Source of the DNA: an uncultured Candidatus Saccharibacteria bacterium
GTDB taxonomy: Bacteria; Patescibacteriota; Minisyncoccia; UBA11713; 2-01-FULL-45-33
Direction of reading: 5' to 3'
Assembly (NCBI GenBank): GCA_964640425.1
Contig: CAZXFC010000023.1
Coordinates: forward strand, 1 to 17,396
DNA: 17,396 bases
Program-made: the position numbers and the translations under genes
Notes under the pieces: generated by a model
The model's database searches: none
Told to the model about the DNA's origin: nothing
Seen by the model: the letters and a program-made list of their open reading frames with translations, nothing else
Part shown: positions 3-7,689 of the stretch, in pieces
How the letters are laid out: the number at the start of each line of letters is the position of its first letter
Numbering within the stretch: position 1 is the stretch's first letter

Positions 3-3000
3 TTATATCCTCCTTATCTCCTCGGCGATTATGGAAGGCGAGTCGTTGCGGAAAGAATAATTTCCCGTGACCATGACGCAATTGTTTTCGATTATATTTT
101 GGCCGTATTGCTGGAGGGTGCGCGGGAAAACGACGCATTCGATCTCGTCAGTCATGTCCTGAAGCTTTAAGAAGAGCATCGATTCTCCCTTTTTGGTCGT
201 TATACGGCGCGAGGTCAAAATAAGCGCGGCGACGGAAGCCTGCGGTCCGTAAGTGCCGCCTTTTTTTATTTTGAAGGAAGATATGGGAATTATGTAACCG
301 TTTTTCCCATTCTTTTTGTTGTCGTTATTGAATTTTTCGAGAGGATGCCCGGAAACATAAACTCCGAGGAGCTCGCGTTCCCAAGCAAGCTTTTCCTCAA
401 GCGTTGCTGGTAAGGTTTTTGATAGTTTAAGTTGCGGGAGAGTTGATTTATCAGACATTTCTGAAAAAAGCGATGACTGGCTGTCGTTCGAACTTTTGCG
501 GTGCGCTTTTGCATATTCCAAAATTTTATCCATATTTTTGACGACCTCGTTCCTTTCGGCAAATCCGTCCAAGGCCCCGGCTTTGGCCAGCGATTCGAGT
601 GATCTTTTGTTTAAGTCTTTTGAGTCGACCCTTTCCAGAAATTCGGCGAGCGACGTGAAAGATCCGTTTTTATCGCGTTCCACAATTATCGCTTCAACGA
701 TATTTTCCCCGACATTTTTTATCGACGTGAGCCCAAATCTGATTTTTGGCGGTTCACCCGCCGCTTGGCGGTCCGACTGCAAAGCGGGTATGGAAAATAT
801 TTTATTGCTTTGGTTGATATCCGGAGGCAAAACGGAAATCCCCATTTCTTTGCATTCCTTGATCAGCATTGCGATGCGTTCGGTATCTTTTTTATCGTTG
901 TTGAAAAGCGATGTCATGAATTCGAGAGGATAATAATATTTAAGCCAGGCTGTCTGAGCCCCGATTATCGCGTATGCGGCCGTATGCGCCTTATTGAAAC
1001 CGTATCGCGCGAAAGGCTCCAGAAGTTCTCCCAATTCTTGGGCTATTTTCGCATCAATGCCGTTTTTTATCATTCCGCCGACGAATTTTTCTTTTTGCTC
1101 TTCGAGAAGACTTCTTATTTTCTTACCGATGGCTTTGCGCAAAATGTCGGCTTCGGCGAGAGTAAACCCGGCCATTTCCTGCGCAATCTGCATCATTTGC
1201 TCCTGATAGATCGTCACTCCGTAAGTCGGCGACAATATTTTTTCCAATTTAGGATGGATATAAGTGACTTTTTCTTTGCCGTGCTTTCGCAAAATAAATG
1301 AGGGGATAAGCTCCATCGGGCCGGGGCGGAAGAGCGATATCATGGCGATGATGTCTTCAATGTCGTGCGGCTCCAGCTCCACTAAATATCTTGTCATTCC
1401 CGAACCTTCAAGCTGGAAAACTCCCACGGTTTTCCCTTCGCGGAGCATTTTGTAGGGTTCAGGATCGTTTACGTCGATATTTTGAATATCTATTTCTTTG
1501 CCGTACCTTTCTTTTATCAAATCGATGGTATTTTCCATTATCGATAGGTTTTTCAATCCGAGAAAATCCATTTTGAGAAGTCCCAAGTCGACGATGCCGT
1601 GCATATCGTATTGCGTTACGATCGCCTCATGCCTCGCATCGTCGTCTCCCCGCACGGCGGCGCGCTGCAACGGCACCATGTCTGTGAGAGGATTTTTTGT
1701 GATAACAACTCCCGAAGCGTGAACCGAAGCATGGCGGCATACGCCTTCCAGTTTCATTGCGGCGTCTAACATTTTTTTCGCGTCCGGGCTCGTCTCATAA
1801 ATGTTTTTAAGTTCAGGAACTTCTTTAAGGCATTTTTCCAGATATCCTTCTTTTTCTCCCTGATTCGGGTTGAAAGGTATCATTTTTGCGGTTTGGTCGG
1901 CCAATGCGAGTGAGATGCCCAAGGCCCGCCCTGCGTCGCGAATCGCCGCGCGGGCCGCCATTGTGCCGAAAGTGATAATTTGCGCAACATGATCCCTTCC
2001 GTATTTTTGGGCGACATATTCAATTACTTCGTCCCGCCTCGTATCCGCAAAATCCATATCGATGTCGGGCGGCTCCACGCGCGCAGGATTTAAAAATCTT
2101 TCGAAAATAAGATTGTATTTTATCGGGTCGACGTTCGTTATTTCCAAAACGTAAGAGACGATTGAGCCTGCCGCCGAGCCTCTTCCCGGGCCGACCGCGA
2201 TTTTTTGTTTTTTTGCCCAATTGACGAAATCCCACACCACCAAAAAATATTCAACGAACCCGGTCGTTTGCAAAACCGAAAGCTCGTAAGCAAGGCGCTT
2301 TTCTATTTCTGCGCCGGGTTTTTCACCATATCGTTTTATCAGTCCTTCTTCGCAAAGTTTTTCGAGGTACGAAAATGCCGTTTCGCCTTCGGGAAGAGGA
2401 AAGCTCGGTATTTGGATTTTACCCAGTTCCATTTTCAGATCGCACATCTCTGCGATTTTCAGCGTATTTGTAATTGCCTCGGGCGTATCTTTGAAAAGTT
2501 CAGCCATCTCTTCAGGCGCGCTGAGCGAATAATCGTCGTCTTTCATCGTGAGCCGGTCCTCGTCGTCGAGCCTTGTATTGGTTTGCACCGCCAAAAGCAC
2601 GTCGTGGGCCGACGCGTCATTTTTTTTTAAATAATGGATGTCTTGGGTCGCGACAAGCCCCACGCCGTGTTTTTTAGCGAAAGCTACGAGGTCGGCCATC
2701 AGCTTATTATAATTCGGCACTGAAGGATGGCTGCCTATTTCGATGAAAAAATTTTCTTTGCCCAAAATCTCCTGATATTGCGCCAAAAGTTCATCTGCCC
2801 TTGCTTCGTCGTTGTTCAAAAGAGCGCGCGGAATTTCGCCCGTCATGCATCCGGAGAGAGCGACGAGGCCGGCCGAATACTTTCTCAAATTTTCTTTATC
2901 TATTCTCGGCTTGTAATAGAAACCCTCCAGATGGGCGAGCGTCACGAGCTTCACGAGGTTTTTGTAACCCTCCAGGTTTTTTGAAAGCAATATCAAATGA

Positions 3001-3257
3001 TATCTTTTGTCGTCTATGCCGGGGCGTTTTTCATAAAGAGAACCGGCGGCGACGTAGGCTTCAACTCCGATGATCGGCTTTATTCCCGCTTTTTTACAGG
3101 CTTTGTAAAATTCTATCGCGCCGTAAAGATTGCCGTGATCGGTTATCGCCAAGGCGGGCATGCCCATTTTTTTTGCTTCCTTAACAAGGCCGTCAATTTT
3201 TGCAAGGCCGTCCAAGAGCGAATAATGCGAATGAGTATGTAGGTGAACGAATGACAT
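3..3257 (-). CDS. dnaE: DNA polymerase III alpha subunit (replicative polymerase), compact 1084-aa form
   Basis: Single uninterrupted ORF. The N-terminal PHP-domain signature MSFVHLHTHSHYSLLDG...ITDHGNLYG and a polymerase core are conserved throughout. ATG at 3255-3257 (reverse strand), stop at 3-5. No SD is visible upstream. Confidence 0.9.
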   Translation of the reverse strand: MSFVHLHTHSHYSLLDGLAKIDGLVKEAKKMGMPALAITDHGNLYGAIEFYKACKKAGIKPIIGVEAYVAAGSLYEKRPGIDDKRYHLILLSKNLEGYKNLVKLVTLAHLEGFYYKPRIDKENLRKYSAGLVALSGCMTGEIPRALLNNDEARADELLAQYQEILGKENFFIEIGSHPSVPNYNKLMADLVAFAKKHGVGLVATQDIHYLKKNDASAHDVLLAVQTNTRLDDEDRLTMKDDDYSLSAPEEMAELFKDTPEAITNTLKIAEMCDLKMELGKIQIPSFPLPEGETAFSYLEKLCEEGLIKRYGEKPGAEIEKRLAYELSVLQTTGFVEYFLVVWDFVNWAKKQKIAVGPGRGSAAGSIVSYVLEITNVDPIKYNLIFERFLNPARVEPPDIDMDFADTRRDEVIEYVAQKYGRDHVAQIITFGTMAARAAIRDAGRALGISLALADQTAKMIPFNPNQGEKEGYLEKCLKEVPELKNIYETSPDAKKMLDAAMKLEGVCRHASVHASGVVITKNPLTDMVPLQRAAVRGDDDARHEAIVTQYDMHGIVDLGLLKMDFLGLKNLSIMENTIDLIKERYGKEIDIQNIDVNDPEPYKMLREGKTVGVFQLEGSGMTRYLVELEPHDIEDIIAMISLFRPGPMELIPSFILRKHGKEKVTYIHPKLEKILSPTYGVTIYQEQMMQIAQEMAGFTLAEADILRKAIGKKIRSLLEEQKEKFVGGMIKNGIDAKIAQELGELLEPFARYGFNKAHTAAYAIIGAQTAWLKYYYPLEFMTSLFNNDKKDTERIAMLIKECKEMGISVLPPDINQSNKIFSIPALQSDRQAAGEPPKIRFGLTSIKNVGENIVEAIIVERDKNGSFTSLAEFLERVDSKDLNKRSLESLAKAGALDGFAERNEVVKNMDKILEYAKAHRKSSNDSQSSLFSEMSDKSTLPQLKLSKTLPATLEEKLAWERELLGVYVSGHPLEKFNNDNKKNGKNGYIIPISSFKIKKGGTYGPQASVAALILTSRRITTKKGESMLFLKLQDMTDEIECVVFPRTLQQYGQNIIENNCVMVTGNYSFRNDSPSIIAEEIRRI

Positions 3258-3375
3258 ATTAATAATTTGATTCTAGCAATTATTTTAGGTTTTGCTAATA
3301 TATATTCAAAAATGCGGGAAAAAACTTGTAGCAACTGGCTGCCCGCCATTTATCAACCCCGGAGGTTCAGATTTT

Positions 3376-3405
3376 TAACTGTCATACTAAGGCAGTTTTT
3401 TCTTT
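3376..3405 (+). terminator. Terminator-like hairpin (aactg-11 nt loop-cagtt, then T-tract) just outside the 3' hairpin of IS-like element A
   Basis: Stem 3377-3381/3393-3397 followed by tttttctttt. No plus-strand gene ends here, so it may be an insertion-target structure rather than a functional terminator. Confidence 0.25.
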
Positions 3406-4076
3406 TATTCCAGCATTAATGTTAGAAGCTCGGTGTCTAACAATTTTGCCGTGCTGGATTTTACAAAACCGAGGTATTCCACTTTGTTTGCGAATTGGTC
3501 CAGGACGATATCCGGCAGCAAAAGAGGTCCCCATCGATTTGTCACAGTATAGTCCTGATAGCTGGACCACGTATATACGTGGTCTTTTTGTTTCCACTCT
3601 TTCATTTCTCGCGGATTACGGTGAATATATGCTGAAAGATGTAGAAGCTGCCGATCATCTTCGACATGTACAATTTTATACGGACCTTGGAACAAATGGC
3701 CGGATTTATTATATTTTGTATTGAAATATTTTGTGTATGCCGTAAGAACTCTTTGCATATATTGCGAAATACCGCCTTCAATGCCTTCTTTTATGGTCAG
3801 ATGAAAATGATTTGGCATTAAAGCAAAATTTACTAATTCCACAGAGCGATTTTTTATAATTTCGGCAATCATTGATTTATCGATGTTAAAAGCTCGGTGT
3901 CTAACAAATCTAGACACGTATCGGCCGATGTTATAGAGAATTTCCGGAGATTGGAAATATAAAATCAAGAATAAGAAGCGTGCCTTGTCTTTTTCGTCAA
4001 GAAAGATTTGCTGTTTATTATTGCCGCGATTGAAAAGATGGTAATACTCTCCGGGCGCGATAGGTGTTGTTCTCAT
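3405..4076 (-). CDS. tnpA: Y1 (HuH) tyrosine transposase, IS200-like / REP-associated (RAYT-like, COG1943-type), 223 aa
   Basis: N-terminal G-E-YYHLFNRG motif, HuH motif LMPNHFHL, and C-terminal catalytic-Tyr helix LSAYIHRNP. Paralogous (roughly 35-40% identity by eye) to the CDS at 5201-5836. Confidence 0.8.
   Translation of the reverse strand: MRTTPIAPGEYYHLFNRGNNKQQIFLDEKDKARFLFLILYFQSPEILYNIGRYVSRFVRHRAFNIDKSMIAEIIKNRSVELVNFALMPNHFHLTIKEGIEGGISQYMQRVLTAYTKYFNTKYNKSGHLFQGPYKIVHVEDDRQLLHLSAYIHRNPREMKEWKQKDHVYTWSSYQDYTVTNRWGPLLLPDIVLDQFANKVEYLGFVKSSTAKLLDTELLTLMLE
3419..3447. repeat. Element A terminal hairpin repeat, 3'/RE side (atgttagaagctcggtgtctaacaatttt). Stem tgttaga/tctaaca, loop agctcggtg.
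   Basis: Exact 29/29 match to 4094-4122. It lies inside the last 14 codons of tnpA-A. Confidence 0.85.
3883..3911. repeat. Element A internal copy of the terminal hairpin (atgttaaaagctcggtgtctaacaaatct), same orientation, 26/29 identity
   Basis: It lies inside the tnpA-A reading frame and encodes FVRHRAFN. An overlapping alternative stem gtgtcta/tagacac is also present. Hairpin centre is 211 nt from the 5'-side copy and 464 nt from the 3'-side copy. Confidence 0.8.
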
Positions 4077-4093
4077 ATGTGCATCAAGCTAGC

Positions 4094-4122
4094 ATGTTAG
4101 AAGCTCGGTGTCTAACAATTTT
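4094..4122. repeat. Element A terminal hairpin repeat, 5'/LE side, 18 nt upstream of the tnpA-A start
   Basis: Exact 29/29 match to 3419-3447. Confidence 0.85.
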
Positions 4123-4171
4123 ATATTCTATGTATTTTATGCTCCAATGCCAATAGATAAATAAGGCAGAG

Positions 4172-5116
4172 ATGCTTTTTAAGCTCCTTGCAAATATTTA
4201 TACGGCCGGACGCACATTCGGTGAAGCGAAGCCCAGGATTGATGCGCTTACAAGGCGAGGTTTTAGCGTGACGAGCGATATTTTGGGTGAATTTAACAAA
4301 GATCGAGAGAGAATTGAACAAGCGGTTGACGAGTATTTACTGCACATGCAGGTACTGGGCTTACTGCAAAAAGCCAAAGGAACCGGAAATATTGTAAGCC
4401 TGGCCGTTAAGCCGTCGCGTATCGGGCTTGAACATTCATATGGGGTTTTCCAAAAAAATCTTCATATTATTGCCGAAGCCGCTAAAAATGCGGGAATATT
4501 TCTTTGGACTGACGCTGAAAAAAAGAAAGACCGAGAAATAGTTACCGTCTCGAATATAAGAGAGCGTGCCATGGGCTTCGATAATATAGGGCAGGCAATT
4601 CAATGTGTCCATTCCGATGCCGAAAAATTTATTGAAGAACTTCTTAAATGGAATATTGGTATTCGTTTTGTGAAAGGCGCGTATACTGACGGAGACCTGA
4701 AAAAAGACACGGACATTGTCCAAAATTTTAAAAATTGTTTTTGGTCAGCGCTTTTTCATTTCAGAAATTCAAAGGAAAAAGCTACTATAGCCGCGGCTAC
4801 CCACGATAGCAGGCTCATCGATTATGCGCTCAGGTTCAGGGAAATAGATCCGGATCTCGCGCAATTTATCCAGATTCAGATGCTATATGGTATCCGCGTG
4901 AAGCTGTGGTTTGAGCTTATAAGGAAAGGGGTTGATCTTTTGATATACGTCCCTTGGGGACCCGACCGGATCGGCTTCTTAAAGCGCCGACTCAAAGAAG
5001 GCATCCAGCCGGGCGCCAAATGGCTTTTTATCAGGAATATTTTCGAAGCGTGGTTTTATAGATTTTCTGATGACTATCCTTACGGTTTTGGAGAAGATAC
5101 TTTTAATAAAAAATAA
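4172..5116 (+). CDS. Proline dehydrogenase (monofunctional PRODH, PutB-like), 314 aa, N-terminus about 20 aa shorter than typical homologues
   Basis: Motifs conserved in the PRODH barrel: IGIRFVKGAY (compare LRIVKGAY), AAATHD (compare VATHD), FIQIQMLYGIR (compare FQMLYGMR), YVPWGP, and FLKRRLKEG (compare MRRLAERP). SD-like aagg lies 6 nt upstream of ATG 4172. An in-frame upstream stop at 4154 fixes the start. Confidence 0.8.
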   Translation: MLFKLLANIYTAGRTFGEAKPRIDALTRRGFSVTSDILGEFNKDRERIEQAVDEYLLHMQVLGLLQKAKGTGNIVSLAVKPSRIGLEHSYGVFQKNLHIIAEAAKNAGIFLWTDAEKKKDREIVTVSNIRERAMGFDNIGQAIQCVHSDAEKFIEELLKWNIGIRFVKGAYTDGDLKKDTDIVQNFKNCFWSALFHFRNSKEKATIAAATHDSRLIDYALRFREIDPDLAQFIQIQMLYGIRVKLWFELIRKGVDLLIYVPWGPDRIGFLKRRLKEGIQPGAKWLFIRNIFEAWFYRFSDDYPYGFGEDTFNKK

Positions 5117-5123
5117 CATTTCA

Positions 5124-5156
5124 TCCGGCGTCAATGGCGCCGGATTTGTTTTTTTT
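5124..5156 (+). terminator. Rho-independent terminator of the PRODH gene
   Basis: Stem tccggcg (5124-5130) / cgccgga (5138-5144), 7-nt loop, followed by tttgtttttttt. Confidence 0.75.
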
Positions 5157-5162
5157 ACAGTC

Positions 5163-5188
5163 ACTTGGCTTCCCGAGACCTAAGTGCT
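5163..5188. repeat. Element B 5'/LE hairpin (acttggc-ttcccgaga-cctaagt, stem with a 1-nt bulge)
   Basis: Shares ttcccgagacctaagt(N)tgct with the 3' copy. Confidence 0.8.
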
Positions 5189-5200
5189 ATATTGCGCGGC

Positions 5201-5836
5201 ATGAGAAAATCAAAATTTGTAAATGGGGAATTTTATCATATTTATAATCGCGGAACCGACAAAAGAGTAATTTTTTCCGATCAATACGACTTTGAGCGCT
5301 TTCTTCGGGCTATGAACGAGTTTAACTCAATCAAGCCGGTTGGCAGCCTTTACGAAAATTCTTTTCGCGACCGACTTAGGTCTCGGGAACCTAAGTTGGT
5401 AAATATCGTTGCTTATTGTCTAAATCCAAATCATTTTCATATTATTTTAGAGCAAATGAAAAACGGCGGGATAAGTAATTTTATTCAAAAACTTGGAGGT
5501 GGGTATGCTAATTATTTTAACGCTAAATACAAAAGGTCGGGAACTCTTTTTCAAGGAAGATTCAAATCAAAGCATGTGGATTCAAATGAATATTTATTGC
5601 ATTTAAGCGTATACGTAAATTTAAATAATAAAGTTCATAAAATAAAAAATCAGAACTTCAGATCAAGTTGGGATGAATATATGAGAGATAACAAAACAAG
5701 CTTGTGCGGGACAAAAATAATTTTGGATCAGTTTAAGAATTCAAAAGAATACAGGATTTTTTCCGAAAGCTCTTTGGTGGATATATTACAAAGGAAGGAA
5801 ACGCACAAGGAGATAGAAAATCTGTTGCTAGAATAG
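5201..5836 (+). CDS. tnpA: Y1 (HuH) tyrosine transposase, IS200-like / RAYT-like, 211 aa from ATG 5201
   Basis: MRKSKFVNGEFYHIYNRG aligns with MRTTPIAPGEYYHLFNRG of the paralogue. HuH motif LNPNHFHI and catalytic-Tyr helix LSVYVNLN are present. The ORF-track start at TTG 5165 was rejected in favour of ATG 5201 on the strength of this alignment. Confidence 0.8.
   Translation: MRKSKFVNGEFYHIYNRGTDKRVIFSDQYDFERFLRAMNEFNSIKPVGSLYENSFRDRLRSREPKLVNIVAYCLNPNHFHIILEQMKNGGISNFIQKLGGGYANYFNAKYKRSGTLFQGRFKSKHVDSNEYLLHLSVYVNLNNKVHKIKNQNFRSSWDEYMRDNKTSLCGTKIILDQFKNSKEYRIFSESSLVDILQRKETHKEIENLLLE
5374..5396. repeat. Element B internal hairpin (acttaggtctcgggaacctaagt), the exact reverse complement of the 23-nt 3'-end hairpin
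   Basis: It lies inside the tnpA-B reading frame and encodes LRSREPKL. Hairpin centre is about 211 nt from the LE hairpin and about 465 nt from the RE hairpin. Confidence 0.8.
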
Positions 5837-5838
5837 TT

Positions 5839-5867
5839 ACTTAGGTTCCCGAGACCTAAGTAGTGCT
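5839..5867. repeat. Element B 3'/RE hairpin (acttaggt-tcccgag-acctaagt, then agtgct), 3 nt after the tnpA-B stop
   Basis: Perfect 7-bp stem. The loop contains CCGAG, as in the element A loops when read in element orientation. Confidence 0.8.
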
Positions 5868-5952
5868 CATTCGGGCGTTAATTGCGCCTGACTCTATGTT
5901 TTTTTTAGGAATATGCTATCTTAATTTAAGAATGTTTTTGTAGAGGCGTATT

Positions 5953-6274: not shown

Positions 6275-6910
6275 ATGTATTATTTATGTGTGGTTAAATA
6301 CATCATTGGAATCGACGAGGTTGGGAGGGGACCGTTGGCCGGGCCGATGATGGTCGGCGCCGTTGCGATTGCCGGAGAGCCGCCGGACGCCGGATTTTTG
6401 AGAGGAATAAAAGATTCTAAGAAACTGACAAAACTCCGGCGCGAGAATTGGAGCAAGAAAATTTGGGCGGAGAAAAACCGGCCCAAGGCCGGCCAGCCTG
6501 GGGCTGGCGAAATTAAAATTGCAATTGTCTCTATTGGTCCGTCCGTTATCGACAAATACGGGATATCTGCATCATTAAAACTCGCGGTAGCCAAGTGTCT
6601 TAAGATTTTGGTTAAAACCGATGACGAGTGCGAAATATTTCTCGATGGCTCGCTTTATGCGCCTGAGCAATATAAAAATCAACAAACAATTATAAAAGGA
6701 GACGAAAAGTTTCCGGTAATTTCCGCGGCTTCGGTGGTGGCCAAAGTTTACCGCGACAAAATAATGCAAAAACTTTCGATAAAATATCCCGAATATGGTT
6801 TTGACAATCATGTCGGCTATGGCACCGCCGCCCACATCGCGGCGATAAAAAAACACGGCCTCTCGGCCGTCCACCGCAAAAGTTTTTGCAAAAAAATTCT
6901 TATTGATTAA
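6275..6910 (+). CDS. rnhB: Ribonuclease HII
   Basis: Signature IIGIDEVGRGPLAGP...DSKKLT, a catalytic DxxD... region, and a full-length 211-aa product. GC-rich relative to its neighbours. Confidence 0.9.
   Translation: MYYLCVVKYIIGIDEVGRGPLAGPMMVGAVAIAGEPPDAGFLRGIKDSKKLTKLRRENWSKKIWAEKNRPKAGQPGAGEIKIAIVSIGPSVIDKYGISASLKLAVAKCLKILVKTDDECEIFLDGSLYAPEQYKNQQTIIKGDEKFPVISAASVVAKVYRDKIMQKLSIKYPEYGFDNHVGYGTAAHIAAIKKHGLSAVHRKSFCKKILID
6848..6875 (+). repeat. 28-bp perfect direct repeat, copy 1 (aaaaaacacggcctctcggccgtccacc), inside the 3' end of rnhB; contains the palindrome acggcc-tctc-ggccgt
   Basis: Identical to 7636-7663. Confidence 0.9.
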
Positions 6911-6911
6911 T

Positions 6912-7637
6912 ATGAAAGGTATGAACGAGCAGTCTTCACGGTCAGAAACTCCCCAAGAACTAAACGAACTATTGCAGGAACCCGGCAAGGATTATAGTCA
7001 TTTAATCAGGAAGATAGAAAAATTTGACGGGAAGTACGCTGAAATTCTTAGGACAAACTATTCTGAAATTTGGGATGATTATATTTTTAAAAGGACAAAT
7101 GCGGATATTAATATTGACTCCCTTTTTCAAAAGGCTTTACCGGATGAAACACTTGTTGATTTGGGTGGGGCGGCGGGGAGGCTAAGTGAGCTGGCTGGAA
7201 AATATAAGGCTAAGATGTATTTAGATGCTGATTTATATCCTTACGGAGCTGATGATCCGGAACCCGCTGACCCCACTAAAGGAAATATAAATATTAACGA
7301 TTATTATGATGTGATAACAAATACAAAAATGTTTGAGGGTAGCATAAAAAAATTAATAGTTAGAAGCGATATGCTTGATTTCGCGAGCCGAATAAAAGAC
7401 GGATCCGTAAACCTTACGCTAAACGGCATTGATTCATTTATTATTAAGGACCCAAAATATCACGAGGCATTGGCAAATGAAATTGCCCGGGCGGCCAAGC
7501 CGGGTGGTATTATATTCGGTAATCATTCAACTAGCTTAATGATGCTCGTTAAGATGATAGAAGGTGGGCCACTACGAGACAAATTTGAAATAGCAAAGAA
7601 TCATCAGGGTATGATTGTCATCCAAAAGAAAAACTAA
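6912..7637 (+). CDS. Putative class I SAM-dependent methyltransferase (substrate unknown), low GC
   Basis: Motif I-like LVDLGGAAGRL followed by the acidic YLDAD, plus a post-I AKPGGIIFG motif. There is no DPPY/SPPY DNA-methyltransferase motif. The start could be ATG 6912 or ATG 6921. Confidence 0.45.
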   Translation: MKGMNEQSSRSETPQELNELLQEPGKDYSHLIRKIEKFDGKYAEILRTNYSEIWDDYIFKRTNADINIDSLFQKALPDETLVDLGGAAGRLSELAGKYKAKMYLDADLYPYGADDPEPADPTKGNININDYYDVITNTKMFEGSIKKLIVRSDMLDFASRIKDGSVNLTLNGIDSFIIKDPKYHEALANEIARAAKPGGIIFGNHSTSLMMLVKMIEGGPLRDKFEIAKNHQGMIVIQKKN

Positions 7638-7663
7638 AAAACACGGCCTCTCGGCCGTCCACC
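7636..7663 (+). repeat. 28-bp perfect direct repeat, copy 2, immediately after the methyltransferase stop
   Basis: Identical to 6848-6875. Confidence 0.9.
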
Positions 7664-7689
7664 ACCGCTCATTTTGTAAGAATATATAA
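7636..7689 (+). pseudogene. Ghost duplicate of the rnhB 3' end (encodes KKHGLSAVHHRSFCKNI* against rnhB KKHGLSAVHRKSFCKKILID*)
   Basis: The first 28 nt are identical to rnhB. The remainder has diverged at synonymous/conservative positions (cgc/cgc, agt/tca Ser, ttt/ttt, tgc/tgt, aaa/aag) and carries its own stop. Confidence 0.7.

Follow-up and report, generated by a model that had tools for sequence, protein, structure and literature searches.

Palindrome-bracketed RAYT/TIRYT-like Y1 genes between dnaE and rnhB of a Saccharibacteria contig as probable semi-domesticated residents

Are the two small transposase-like genes that flank a proline dehydrogenase gene (PRODH) on contig CAZXFC010000023.1 of an uncultured Candidatus Saccharibacteria bacterium active insertion sequences, the ends of a composite transposon, or residents of another kind? 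We analyzed a 17.4-kb stretch of this contig, referred to at its full length as the window, whose positions are used for all coordinates. An earlier note on this DNA had described two ~0.7-kb tnpA-only Y1/HUH units of RAYT-like protein length with their own end palindromes, a description that the open reading frames (ORFs), Pfam family PF01797 and the repeats confirm: unit A lies at 3405-4122 on the minus strand and unit B at 5163-5861 on the plus strand, and each is ~0.7 kb long, encodes one Y1/HUH protein and carries its own palindrome at both ends. Our favored explanation, to which we assign a probability of roughly 0.6, is that A and B are paralogous RAYT/TIRYT-like Y1 HUH modules that live as semi-domesticated, REPtron- or TIRtron-like residents and not as active insertion sequences; we hold with the same confidence that they are members of a very large clade of predicted Y1 HUH single-strand-DNA nucleases found throughout the candidate phyla radiation (CPR; Patescibacteria). 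They appear to be long-standing occupants, for the most part inherited, of a variable site between dnaE and rnhB. The explanation builds on features that were seen directly, namely the anatomy of the units and its recurrence, compensation between palindrome arms, concerted evolution, center flips, long residence and the lack of recent duplicates.

Each palindrome is present in three copies, the third of which lies inside the unit's own gene and is new beyond the outer pairs recognized earlier. In unit A, the upstream copy A-H1 (4094-4122, minus strand; sense sequence AAAATTGTTAGACAC-CGA-GCTTCTAACAT) has its center 30 nt before the ATG, and the downstream copy A-H3 (3419-3447, minus) overlaps the last codons of gene A, where it encodes KLLDTELLT; both are 29 nt long, 100% identical and in direct orientation. 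The intragenic copy A-H2 (3883-3911, minus) is in frame and encodes F-V-R-H-R-A-F-N-I. It differs from the other A copies by one mismatch in the 21-nt core, keeps their orientation, and has a center triplet CGA that is exactly codon 61 (3894-3896). In unit B, the upstream copy B-H1 (5163-5185, plus; ACTTGGCT-TCCCGAG-ACCTAAGT) sits within a promoter-like site and has two mismatches to the 23-nt palindrome, while the downstream copy B-H3 (5839-5861, plus), which is direct to B-H1, begins 3 nt past the stop codon of gene B. The in-frame intragenic copy B-H2 (5374-5396, plus), which encodes R-L-R-S-R-E-P-K-L, shows no mismatch, and its loop is inverted relative to B-H1 and B-H3. Each motif (A, 29 nt; B, 23 nt) matches three times in the window versus 0.00 expected from 200 shuffles, and no further A or B palindromes were found in the rest of the 17.4 kb. 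As DNA hairpins the window palindromes are modest (free energy -2.4 to -9 kcal/mol, z-scores -1.3 to -4.7); their significance derives from recurrence and covariation in relatives and not from stability in the window.

The proteins themselves set A and B apart from canonical insertion sequences. Gene A (3405-4076, minus) encodes a predicted RAYT/TIRYT-like Y1/HUH nuclease of 223 aa with the HUH motif NHFH at residues 89-92, FQG, Y150 within YIHRNP, and WSS at 170-172; gene B (5201-5836, plus) encodes a predicted Y1/HUH nuclease of 211 aa with NHFH, FQG, YVNLNN and SSW. An alternative TTG start of gene B at 5165 would give 223 aa and would fall within B-H1. Both proteins matched the Pfam hidden Markov model Y1_Tnp (PF01797), A with E 2e-12 and B with E 1e-8, as the earlier note had proposed to check. 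They are 35% identical to each other and their palindromes are unrelated, which bears out the view that the two units are divergent paralogues with different ends. An alignment of 28 homologues of 211-228 aa shows little or no variation in NHFH, FQG, WSS and the tyrosine of YIHRNP, and a C-terminal extension of ~70 aa that includes the WSS and QF motifs is conserved. YIHRNP is kept across the A clade; B has N-N in place of N-P.

These motifs can be read against published classes. Class 2 of TnpA-Y1 proteins (TnpA-REP-like) has Y---NP and IS200 has Y---Q (Quentin 2018, PMC6006769); the IS200 proteins of subclass 1.1 are ~150 aa long and carry Y-x-x-x-Q (Y[IV]ENQ) and the HUH motif D-H-[VI]-H (PMC6006769). 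Subclass 2.1, which corresponds to RAYT group 1 (Bertels 2017, PMC5581495) and to the TIRYTs (Di Nocera 2013, PMC3733652), is defined by NH[YF]H, FQ (or W[EQ]), a Y[IV]HLNP-like motif, a serine pair after the tyrosine and a median length of 238 aa (PMC6006769), a motif set that our clade appears, on motif inspection, to match best. The AlphaFold model of A (predicted local distance difference test score 82) has a single low-confidence internal stretch, residues 51-62, and the A-H2 peptide falls in this loop. Its top fold match in the PDB is E. coli TnpA-REP, 4ER8 (Foldseek E 3.5e-5, target TM 0.67), followed by the TnpA proteins of IS608 and ISDra2; a sequence-level PDB search with the single protein gave no match, and a profile search gave ISDra2 TnpA (E 0.008) as sole match. 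The Y---NP or Y---NN motif, WSS, and the best fold match to 4ER8 mark both proteins, as far as sequence and predicted structure go, as RAYT/TIRYT-like and not IS200-like. The earlier attribution to IS200/IS605 is not supported, since YIHRNP and YVNLNN are not Y---Q, the HUH motif is NHFH, the lengths are 223 and 211 aa versus ~150 aa, and the best fold match is 4ER8. The suggestion of a RAYT-like, possibly undescribed subgroup fared better: class 2 motifs and fold agree with it, and full-text searches of the literature turned up no account of this CPR clade with its palindrome layout.

The same layout recurs widely. We collected 63 loci from reference genomes, 80 from metagenomes and more through exact-protein look-up, 1.28 Mb in total. 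Close homologues with 60-82% identity (60-75% for A) number >3,500 for A and >3,200 for B, in Giovannonibacteria, Zambryskibacteria, Levybacteria, Tagabacteria, Paceibacterota and other CPR lineages, and an exhaustive search returned 7,154 clusters (50% identity) at E<=1e-10; exact-protein look-up found no protein on record identical to that of gene A. Of the 95 genes whose flanks are complete, 85 have a 16-mer common to the upstream and downstream flanks (<=1 mismatch), and three copies of the own palindrome at the gene were seen in ~80 CPR relatives. In these 85 genes the orientation of the flanking copies is direct 53 times and inverted 32 times. Hence the direct end hairpins of the earlier note are correct for A and B in the window but are not supported as a family trait, the more so as the 3-nt centers flip. 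The A-clade consensus, from 82 genes, is TGTTnnACAC-CGA-GTGTnnAACA, a 10-bp stem with an invariant C-CGA-G apex. The center of H1 lies 22-58 nt before the ATG, H3 is mostly found 5-87 nt past the stop codon and in a few members, A included, reaches into the final codons, and the center of H2 is at nt +181 (codon 61) in ~50 of the 82 genes. In the 1.28 Mb of loci we counted 183 palindromes of the A-clade type versus 0-1 in shuffles; Y1 genes account for 171 of them, and beside the other 12, which are solitary, no Y1 pseudogene remnants were found. Position-wise information in 64-66 flanking copies showed that conservation ends with the palindrome itself, leaving no tetranucleotide next to it that could serve as a guide or cleavage site.

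The B clade extends this picture to several paralogues per genome. Two dispersed loci of the complete genome CP066687.1 (651,549 bp) hold B-clade paralogues with their own stems, and a third B-clade protein is listed on that contig. One of these genes (locus L167, 10001-10645) has, besides a copy at ~+185, a fourth, in-frame copy past the Y motif and before SSW, at nt +452. Several arrangements elsewhere were observed in their own right. In loci L002 (8103-9951) and L098 (1190-2990), H1 is preceded at 1.8-1.9 kb by a solitary cognate palindrome, and two unannotated genes (326 and 245 aa) thus stand between two copies of the same palindrome; the arrangement is kept in L002, L086 and L098, and the intervening genes were read in L002 and L098. 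Locus L075 (157-4494) has two Y1 paralogues 3 kb apart that bracket a pilin/prepilin-peptidase gene group, and one Giovannonibacteria contig (L006, 2646-13294) has three Y1 paralogues in 13 kb. Outside the CPR, an Aminicenantes locus (L028, 8446-16591) carries eight copies of a repeat starting GGGGTCAG, including an inverted pair around the gene, and a Cyclobacteriaceae locus (L036, 9465-12407) carries 11 flanking-repeat copies in 3 kb in alternating orientation.

Comparison of the palindromes among relatives indicates that the palindrome itself is under selection, and it shows that the three copies per locus evolve in concert and that the 3-nt center of each site flips independently of the others. 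Conservation covers the outer TGT/ACA, and the C-CGA-G apex is invariant, while variation falls on the middle of the stem. Among the flanking copies, paired cells make up 88%, both sides have changed in 9 of the 11 pairs, and none of 500 shuffles reaches the score; the intragenic copies alone give 93.6% paired cells, 6 of 10 pairs that change on both sides and likewise 0 of 500 shuffles. Compensatory changes in H2 rewrite the encoded peptide, for instance to FVKHSVFNI, FVKNRAFNI, FVQSRALDN or GGQSSALTM. Arm identity is 0.92-0.95 within a locus versus 0.68-0.74 between loci. The center triplet is CGA or TCG in nearly every combination of H1, H2 and H3, with the sense strand of H1 favoring CGA (53 of 64), and a flip at H2 exchanges Arg and Ser at codon 61. 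In the B clade, an orthologue of B with 77% protein identity (L163; DnaE 87%) has CCCGAC and not CCCGAG in all three copies, and its B-H2 has the opposite orientation, encoding L-R-F-P-T-P-K-L, so that S-R-E becomes F-P-T; locus L171 shows an intermediate state, with GAC in B-H1 and GAG in B-H3.

The position of H1 relative to the promoter differs between the two genes. For gene A, a promoter-like site (TTGGCA-17-TAGAAT; 4125-4153, minus), a consensus match only, ends 3 nt before A-H1 and would place this copy where the transcript begins or in its 5' untranslated region (UTR). For gene B, the promoter-like site (5165-5193, plus) has its -35 element TTGGCT in the left arm of B-H1, followed by a 17-nt spacer and TG-n-TATATT, and the ATG is 8 nt past the -10 element, making the gene apparently leaderless. 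The same geometry was found in 4 of 4 B-clade loci: TTGGnn in the left arm, a 17-nt spacer, TG-n-TAWAWT after the right arm and the ATG 8-10 nt farther on. Terminator-like GC hairpins with T-runs lie outside the B palindromes at 5123-5145 and 5871-5891; the former, belonging to PRODH, is 18 nt before B-H1 and kept in L163, and the latter is 10 nt after B-H3.

Such positions could suit hairpins that act in RNA, as 5'-UTR, intragenic and 3'-end stem-loops that stabilize or attenuate the mRNA: A-H1 would sit at the transcript start, H3 lies at or just past the stop codon ahead of terminator-like hairpins, and repetitive extragenic palindromes (REPs) affect mRNA stability (PMC3733652). We nevertheless regard this role as very improbable. 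G.T and A.C mismatches are equally frequent in the stems, which together with the center flip indicates a DNA-level rather than an RNA-level element: the sense strand has no excess of G.U-compatible over A.C mismatches, and the CGA/TCG flips at every site and the often inverted flanks would alter the RNA loop but leave the DNA palindrome the same. Moreover, H1 of the B clade lies upstream of an apparent leaderless start and would not be transcribed, and neither an Rfam family nor a tRNA gene was matched in the window.

The promoter overlap also bears on the idea that the palindromes are double-stranded operators, bound at H1-H3 by a dimeric autoregulator or roadblock protein with no practical nuclease function, the covariation then being co-evolution of half-sites. 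This idea draws on the overlap of H1 with the promoter-like site in all four B-clade loci, with the -35 element in the left arm and the TG/-10 element after the right arm, on the apparently unconstrained orientation of the center at H2 and H3, as if both strands were read symmetrically, and on the equal frequency of the two mismatch types. It is quite unlikely in our view, as the catalytic HUH histidines and tyrosine are invariant among the 28 homologues, the most conserved part is the asymmetric C-CGA-G apex, which one would not normally expect a symmetric dimer to touch, and all solved relatives bind folded single-stranded hairpins. Homology breakpoints at the feet, flipping and homogenization likewise suggest DNA transactions at the palindromes.

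The surrounding interval tells how the units came and went. In the window, the gene order is dnaE (3-3257, minus), A (minus), PRODH (4172-5116, plus; PF01619), B (plus), a small ORF (orf84) and the RNase HII gene rnhB (6275-6910), and both Y1 genes are transcribed away from PRODH as a divergent pair around it. This layout, two inverted Y1 genes around PRODH, is by itself what speaks for A and B as the ends of a composite element that mobilizes PRODH, the composite-transposon-like reading of the earlier note. The same interval is arranged differently in four relatives: dnaE, PRODH, B, orf176 and rnhB in L163 and dnaE, PRODH, orf91, B, orf175 and rnhB in L171, both of which lack A; dnaE, B, orf96 and rnhB in L172, which lacks A and PRODH; and dnaE, orf165, A and rnhB in L001, which lacks B and PRODH. 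The five layouts imply that A, B and PRODH were gained or lost independently, which in effect excludes a composite element. In addition, the two proteins are only 35% identical and have unrelated palindromes, and PRODH has retained a terminator-like hairpin of its own that is contiguous with B-H1 both in the window and in L163. PRODH is a neighbor and not cargo. Its own sequence is 60% identical between the window (4172-5116) and L163 (9001-9912), where neighbors reach 76-88%, which could reflect either fast evolution or replacement.

Homology among the window, L163, L171 and L172 starts at the left foot of B-H1 and ends at the right foot of B-H3, and the A-less sites of L163 and L171 align up to the outer foot of A-H1. 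As homology stops at the outer feet of the palindromes, these feet are breakpoints that delimit a discrete module for each unit. That L163 and L171 have an A-less site also settles a doubt raised in the earlier note, which had considered that neither extra copies nor empty sites might exist; its other doubt, that the genes might be non-mobile RAYTs, is partly justified, for they behave much like such genes. We considered a target-site duplication around A and rejected it, the AT-rich likeness of the two junctions being too weak to claim. In L172, a degenerate A-type palindrome, ATGTTAAAAGC-TCG-ACTTCTAATAT (4775-4799), lies ~15 nt after B-H3 where gene A is absent, and its first 14 nt are identical to plus-strand window A-H2; a former A module, now lost, may have left it behind. 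The A orthologue in L001 is 75% identical, compared with 52% for DnaE and 53% for RNase HII.

The most serious competing account holds that A and B are autonomous, currently active minimal IS200/IS605-type transposons, that H1 and H3 are their end hairpins, and that they inserted independently beside PRODH. In its favor are the Y1/HUH fold and the direct hairpins at both ends in the window, the discrete module with homology of relatives ending at the outer feet, the presence or absence of A at an otherwise conserved site, the dispersal of diverged paralogues in one genome, and the possible A-type solo palindrome beside B in L172. We find it unlikely. The motifs are Y---NP or Y---NN and not Y---Q, and the proteins exceed IS200 TnpA in length by 60-70 aa and have the WSS tail motif (PMC6006769). 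Three protein clusters (P0003, P0086 and P0105), each found on 14-24 contigs by exact-protein look-up, occur in one context each, and among 117 pairs with >=85% nucleotide identity from an all-versus-all comparison of 133 genes, 113 share both flanks and four are borderline, so that no convincing case of near-identical copies in different contexts was found among the 133 genes. Together with the rarity of solo palindromes in the sampled loci, this leaves no sign of recent transposition, and current mobility is not supported. Relatives were absent from the viral contigs of IMG/VR, plasmids gave only eight distant matches (<31% identity) and PHROGs only a marginal transposase match. The inverted flanks of 32 of 85 relatives do not fit a strand-specific pair of left and right ends, A occupies the same interval in L001 although DnaE is only 52% identical, and a conserved internal end-like hairpin would bring self-destructive excisions in a peel-and-paste element.

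Several points weigh against our explanation of A and B as semi-domesticated residents. The proteins score far below the cut-off of NCBIfam NF047646 REP_Tyr_transpos (A 30.8 bits and B 26.9 bits versus 80), and the GT[AG]G foot of canonical REPs (GTAG/GTGG) is absent. A symmetric double-stranded operator with a bound dimer would lead one to expect compensatory change just as much, and we infer binding, cleavage position, autoregulation and enzyme-driven homogenization in this clade by analogy. The A indel in L163 and L171 also takes 147 nt beyond A-H3 and is therefore not a clean hairpin-to-hairpin excision. In the distant comparison A is as conserved as its best-conserved neighbors (75% versus 52-76%); this identity could mean strong constraint but could also mean lateral replacement. 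The sample consists of metagenome assemblies, in which collapse or breaks at identical repeats could hide recent duplicates. Finally, diverged paralogues occur at unrelated loci of one 0.65-Mb genome with palindromes at the same relative positions, which implies that the module moved as a unit in the past, and "domesticated" may be too strong a word.

The CPR system would work like a REPtron or TIRtron and has features in common with several known systems. With TIRYTs and TIRtrons (subclass 2.1, RAYT group 1; PMC3733652, PMC6006769, PMC5581495) it shares NH[YF]H, FQ, Y[IV]HxNP, the serine pair and a length of 210-240 aa, as well as low copy number, diverged paralogues per genome and a gene bracketed by its own repeats; the distant relatives L028 (Aminicenantes) and L037 carry inverted repeats, and the repeat start GGGGTCAG of L028 fits the published GGGGWSAS consensus. 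Where TIRYTs have long terminal inverted repeats, the repeats of the CPR clade are short, self-complementary palindromes with the C-CGA-G apex; a third copy is in frame in the gene, and palindromes lie beside the genes although Quentin et al. reported no REP-like structures beside subclass 2.1 genes (PMC6006769). Furthermore, A and B have no Pfam-detectable C-terminal domain of the helix-turn-helix type, and Bac_DnaA_C was not found in them either. E. coli TnpA-REP (RayT/YafM; subclass 2.2; 4ER8, PMC3479197) is the best fold match, with HUH and Y---NP, and the E. coli REPtron is likewise a single gene flanked by cognate palindromes and mostly inherited vertically. The CPR clade differs in its low sequence identity to TnpA-REP (15%), in lacking the GT[AG]G foot, in having several paralogues per genome and an intragenic copy, and in its 12 solo palindromes of 183 in the sampled DNA, compared with hundreds of REPs per E. 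coli genome.

An own palindrome in frame within the gene, in a peripheral permissive region, is also known from TnpA-Y1 subclass 2.4 (RAYT group 4; PMC6006769). In the CPR clade, by contrast, the main copy precedes HuH on the N-terminal side and keeps a fixed codon position (61 in the A clade), and one B-clade member has a second intragenic copy past the Y motif; subclass 2.4 has WQ, YIxNNP and GT[AG]G or double-foot REPs, whereas the CPR clade has FQ, YIHRNP and no GTAG. The likeness to subclass 2.4 would thus be one of functional analogy only. IS200/IS605 TnpA proteins (IS200, IS608, ISDra2; subclass 1.1) resemble A and B in fold, in the catalytic chemistry predicted for A and B, in the ~0.7-kb tnpA-only unit and in hairpins near both ends, which are direct in the window. 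They typically occur in several near-identical copies per genome and are often plasmid-borne (PMC6006769); A and B lack this near-identical multicopy or plasmid habit, lack Y---Q and a conserved cleavage or guide sequence outside the palindrome, and are longer than ~150 aa. What sets the system apart from REPtrons and TIRtrons is the CPR hosts, the non-GTAG palindrome with an invariant CGA apex, the fixed N-terminal in-frame site, the scarcity of dispersed copies in the sampled DNA, the several orthogonal paralogues in a tiny genome, and the documented concerted evolution and flipping.

For A and B as resident modules we propose a working model that follows E. coli TnpA-REP and the TnpA proteins of IS608 and ISDra2. 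The protein would bind its own palindrome as a hairpin on single-stranded or extruded DNA, and the nuclease would read the apex and the locus-specific stem and then cleave and rejoin. Rare strand exchanges among the three copies would homogenize and flip them; with self-complementary arms, an exchange could pair copies in either orientation, which would produce the center flip. Occasional events at the outer feet may move, delete or replace DNA, and these would account for the homology breaks at the feet and the turnover of neighbors. Binding of H1 probably represses the gene's own promoter: H1 of the B clade lies within the promoter-like site, between -35 and -10, and its occupancy should repress the gene. 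H2, at its fixed codon, is a candidate roadblock or self-limiting target, or else a protected template that regenerates H1 and H3. A bolder version, which we put forward only tentatively, is that the palindrome triplets are in vivo hairpin cut-and-rejoin substrates of their own Y1 nuclease, continually copied, homogenized and flipped in a chromosomal "flip/flop" akin to the way in which HUH proteins resolve hairpins in parvoviruses, with the in-frame copy at the fixed codon as a selectively protected master copy, a self-limiting switch, or both.

Among the remaining features of the window, the 147-nt spacer between the stop codon of gene A and the start of dnaE (3258-3404) contains promoter-like sites that face dnaE. 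It is missing together with A from L163 and L171, and it shows no similarity by blastn or tblastx to the 165-aa ORF beside A in L001, of which we had considered it a possible remnant. An identical 28-nt sequence with a GC-rich inverted repeat, AAAAAACACGGCCTCTCGGCCGTCCACC, occurs at 6851-6878, within the C-terminal coding part of RNase HII, and at 7639-7666, directly 3' of the stop codon of the ORF at 6903-7637; it has no relation to the Y1 palindromes. No PADLOC match spoke for a role in defense.

CPR genomes are tiny and are expected to shed selfish or useless DNA. We know of no established cellular role for RAYT-type nucleases and of none described from CPR/Patescibacteria. Our data reveal thousands of conserved Y1 members in the CPR, with several mutually orthogonal paralogues in a 0.65-Mb genome, each locked to three private palindrome copies of which one lies in its own reading frame. 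For annotation, this means that "transposase" calls on these Y1 genes are no evidence for active insertion sequences or composite transposons. The compact system of a protein and a 23-nt site, in which specificity positions covary, lends itself to tests of how Y1 nucleases read hairpin stems, of whether sites are homogenized by their own protein, and of a role in gene turnover between dnaE and rnhB. If the flip/flop version of the model were true, the CPR clade would be a distinct self-referential class of Y1 proteins, in which a nuclease gene carries its own target in frame and several orthogonal paralogues per genome of <1 Mb mark hot spots, the dnaE-rnhB interval among them, at which genes turn over.

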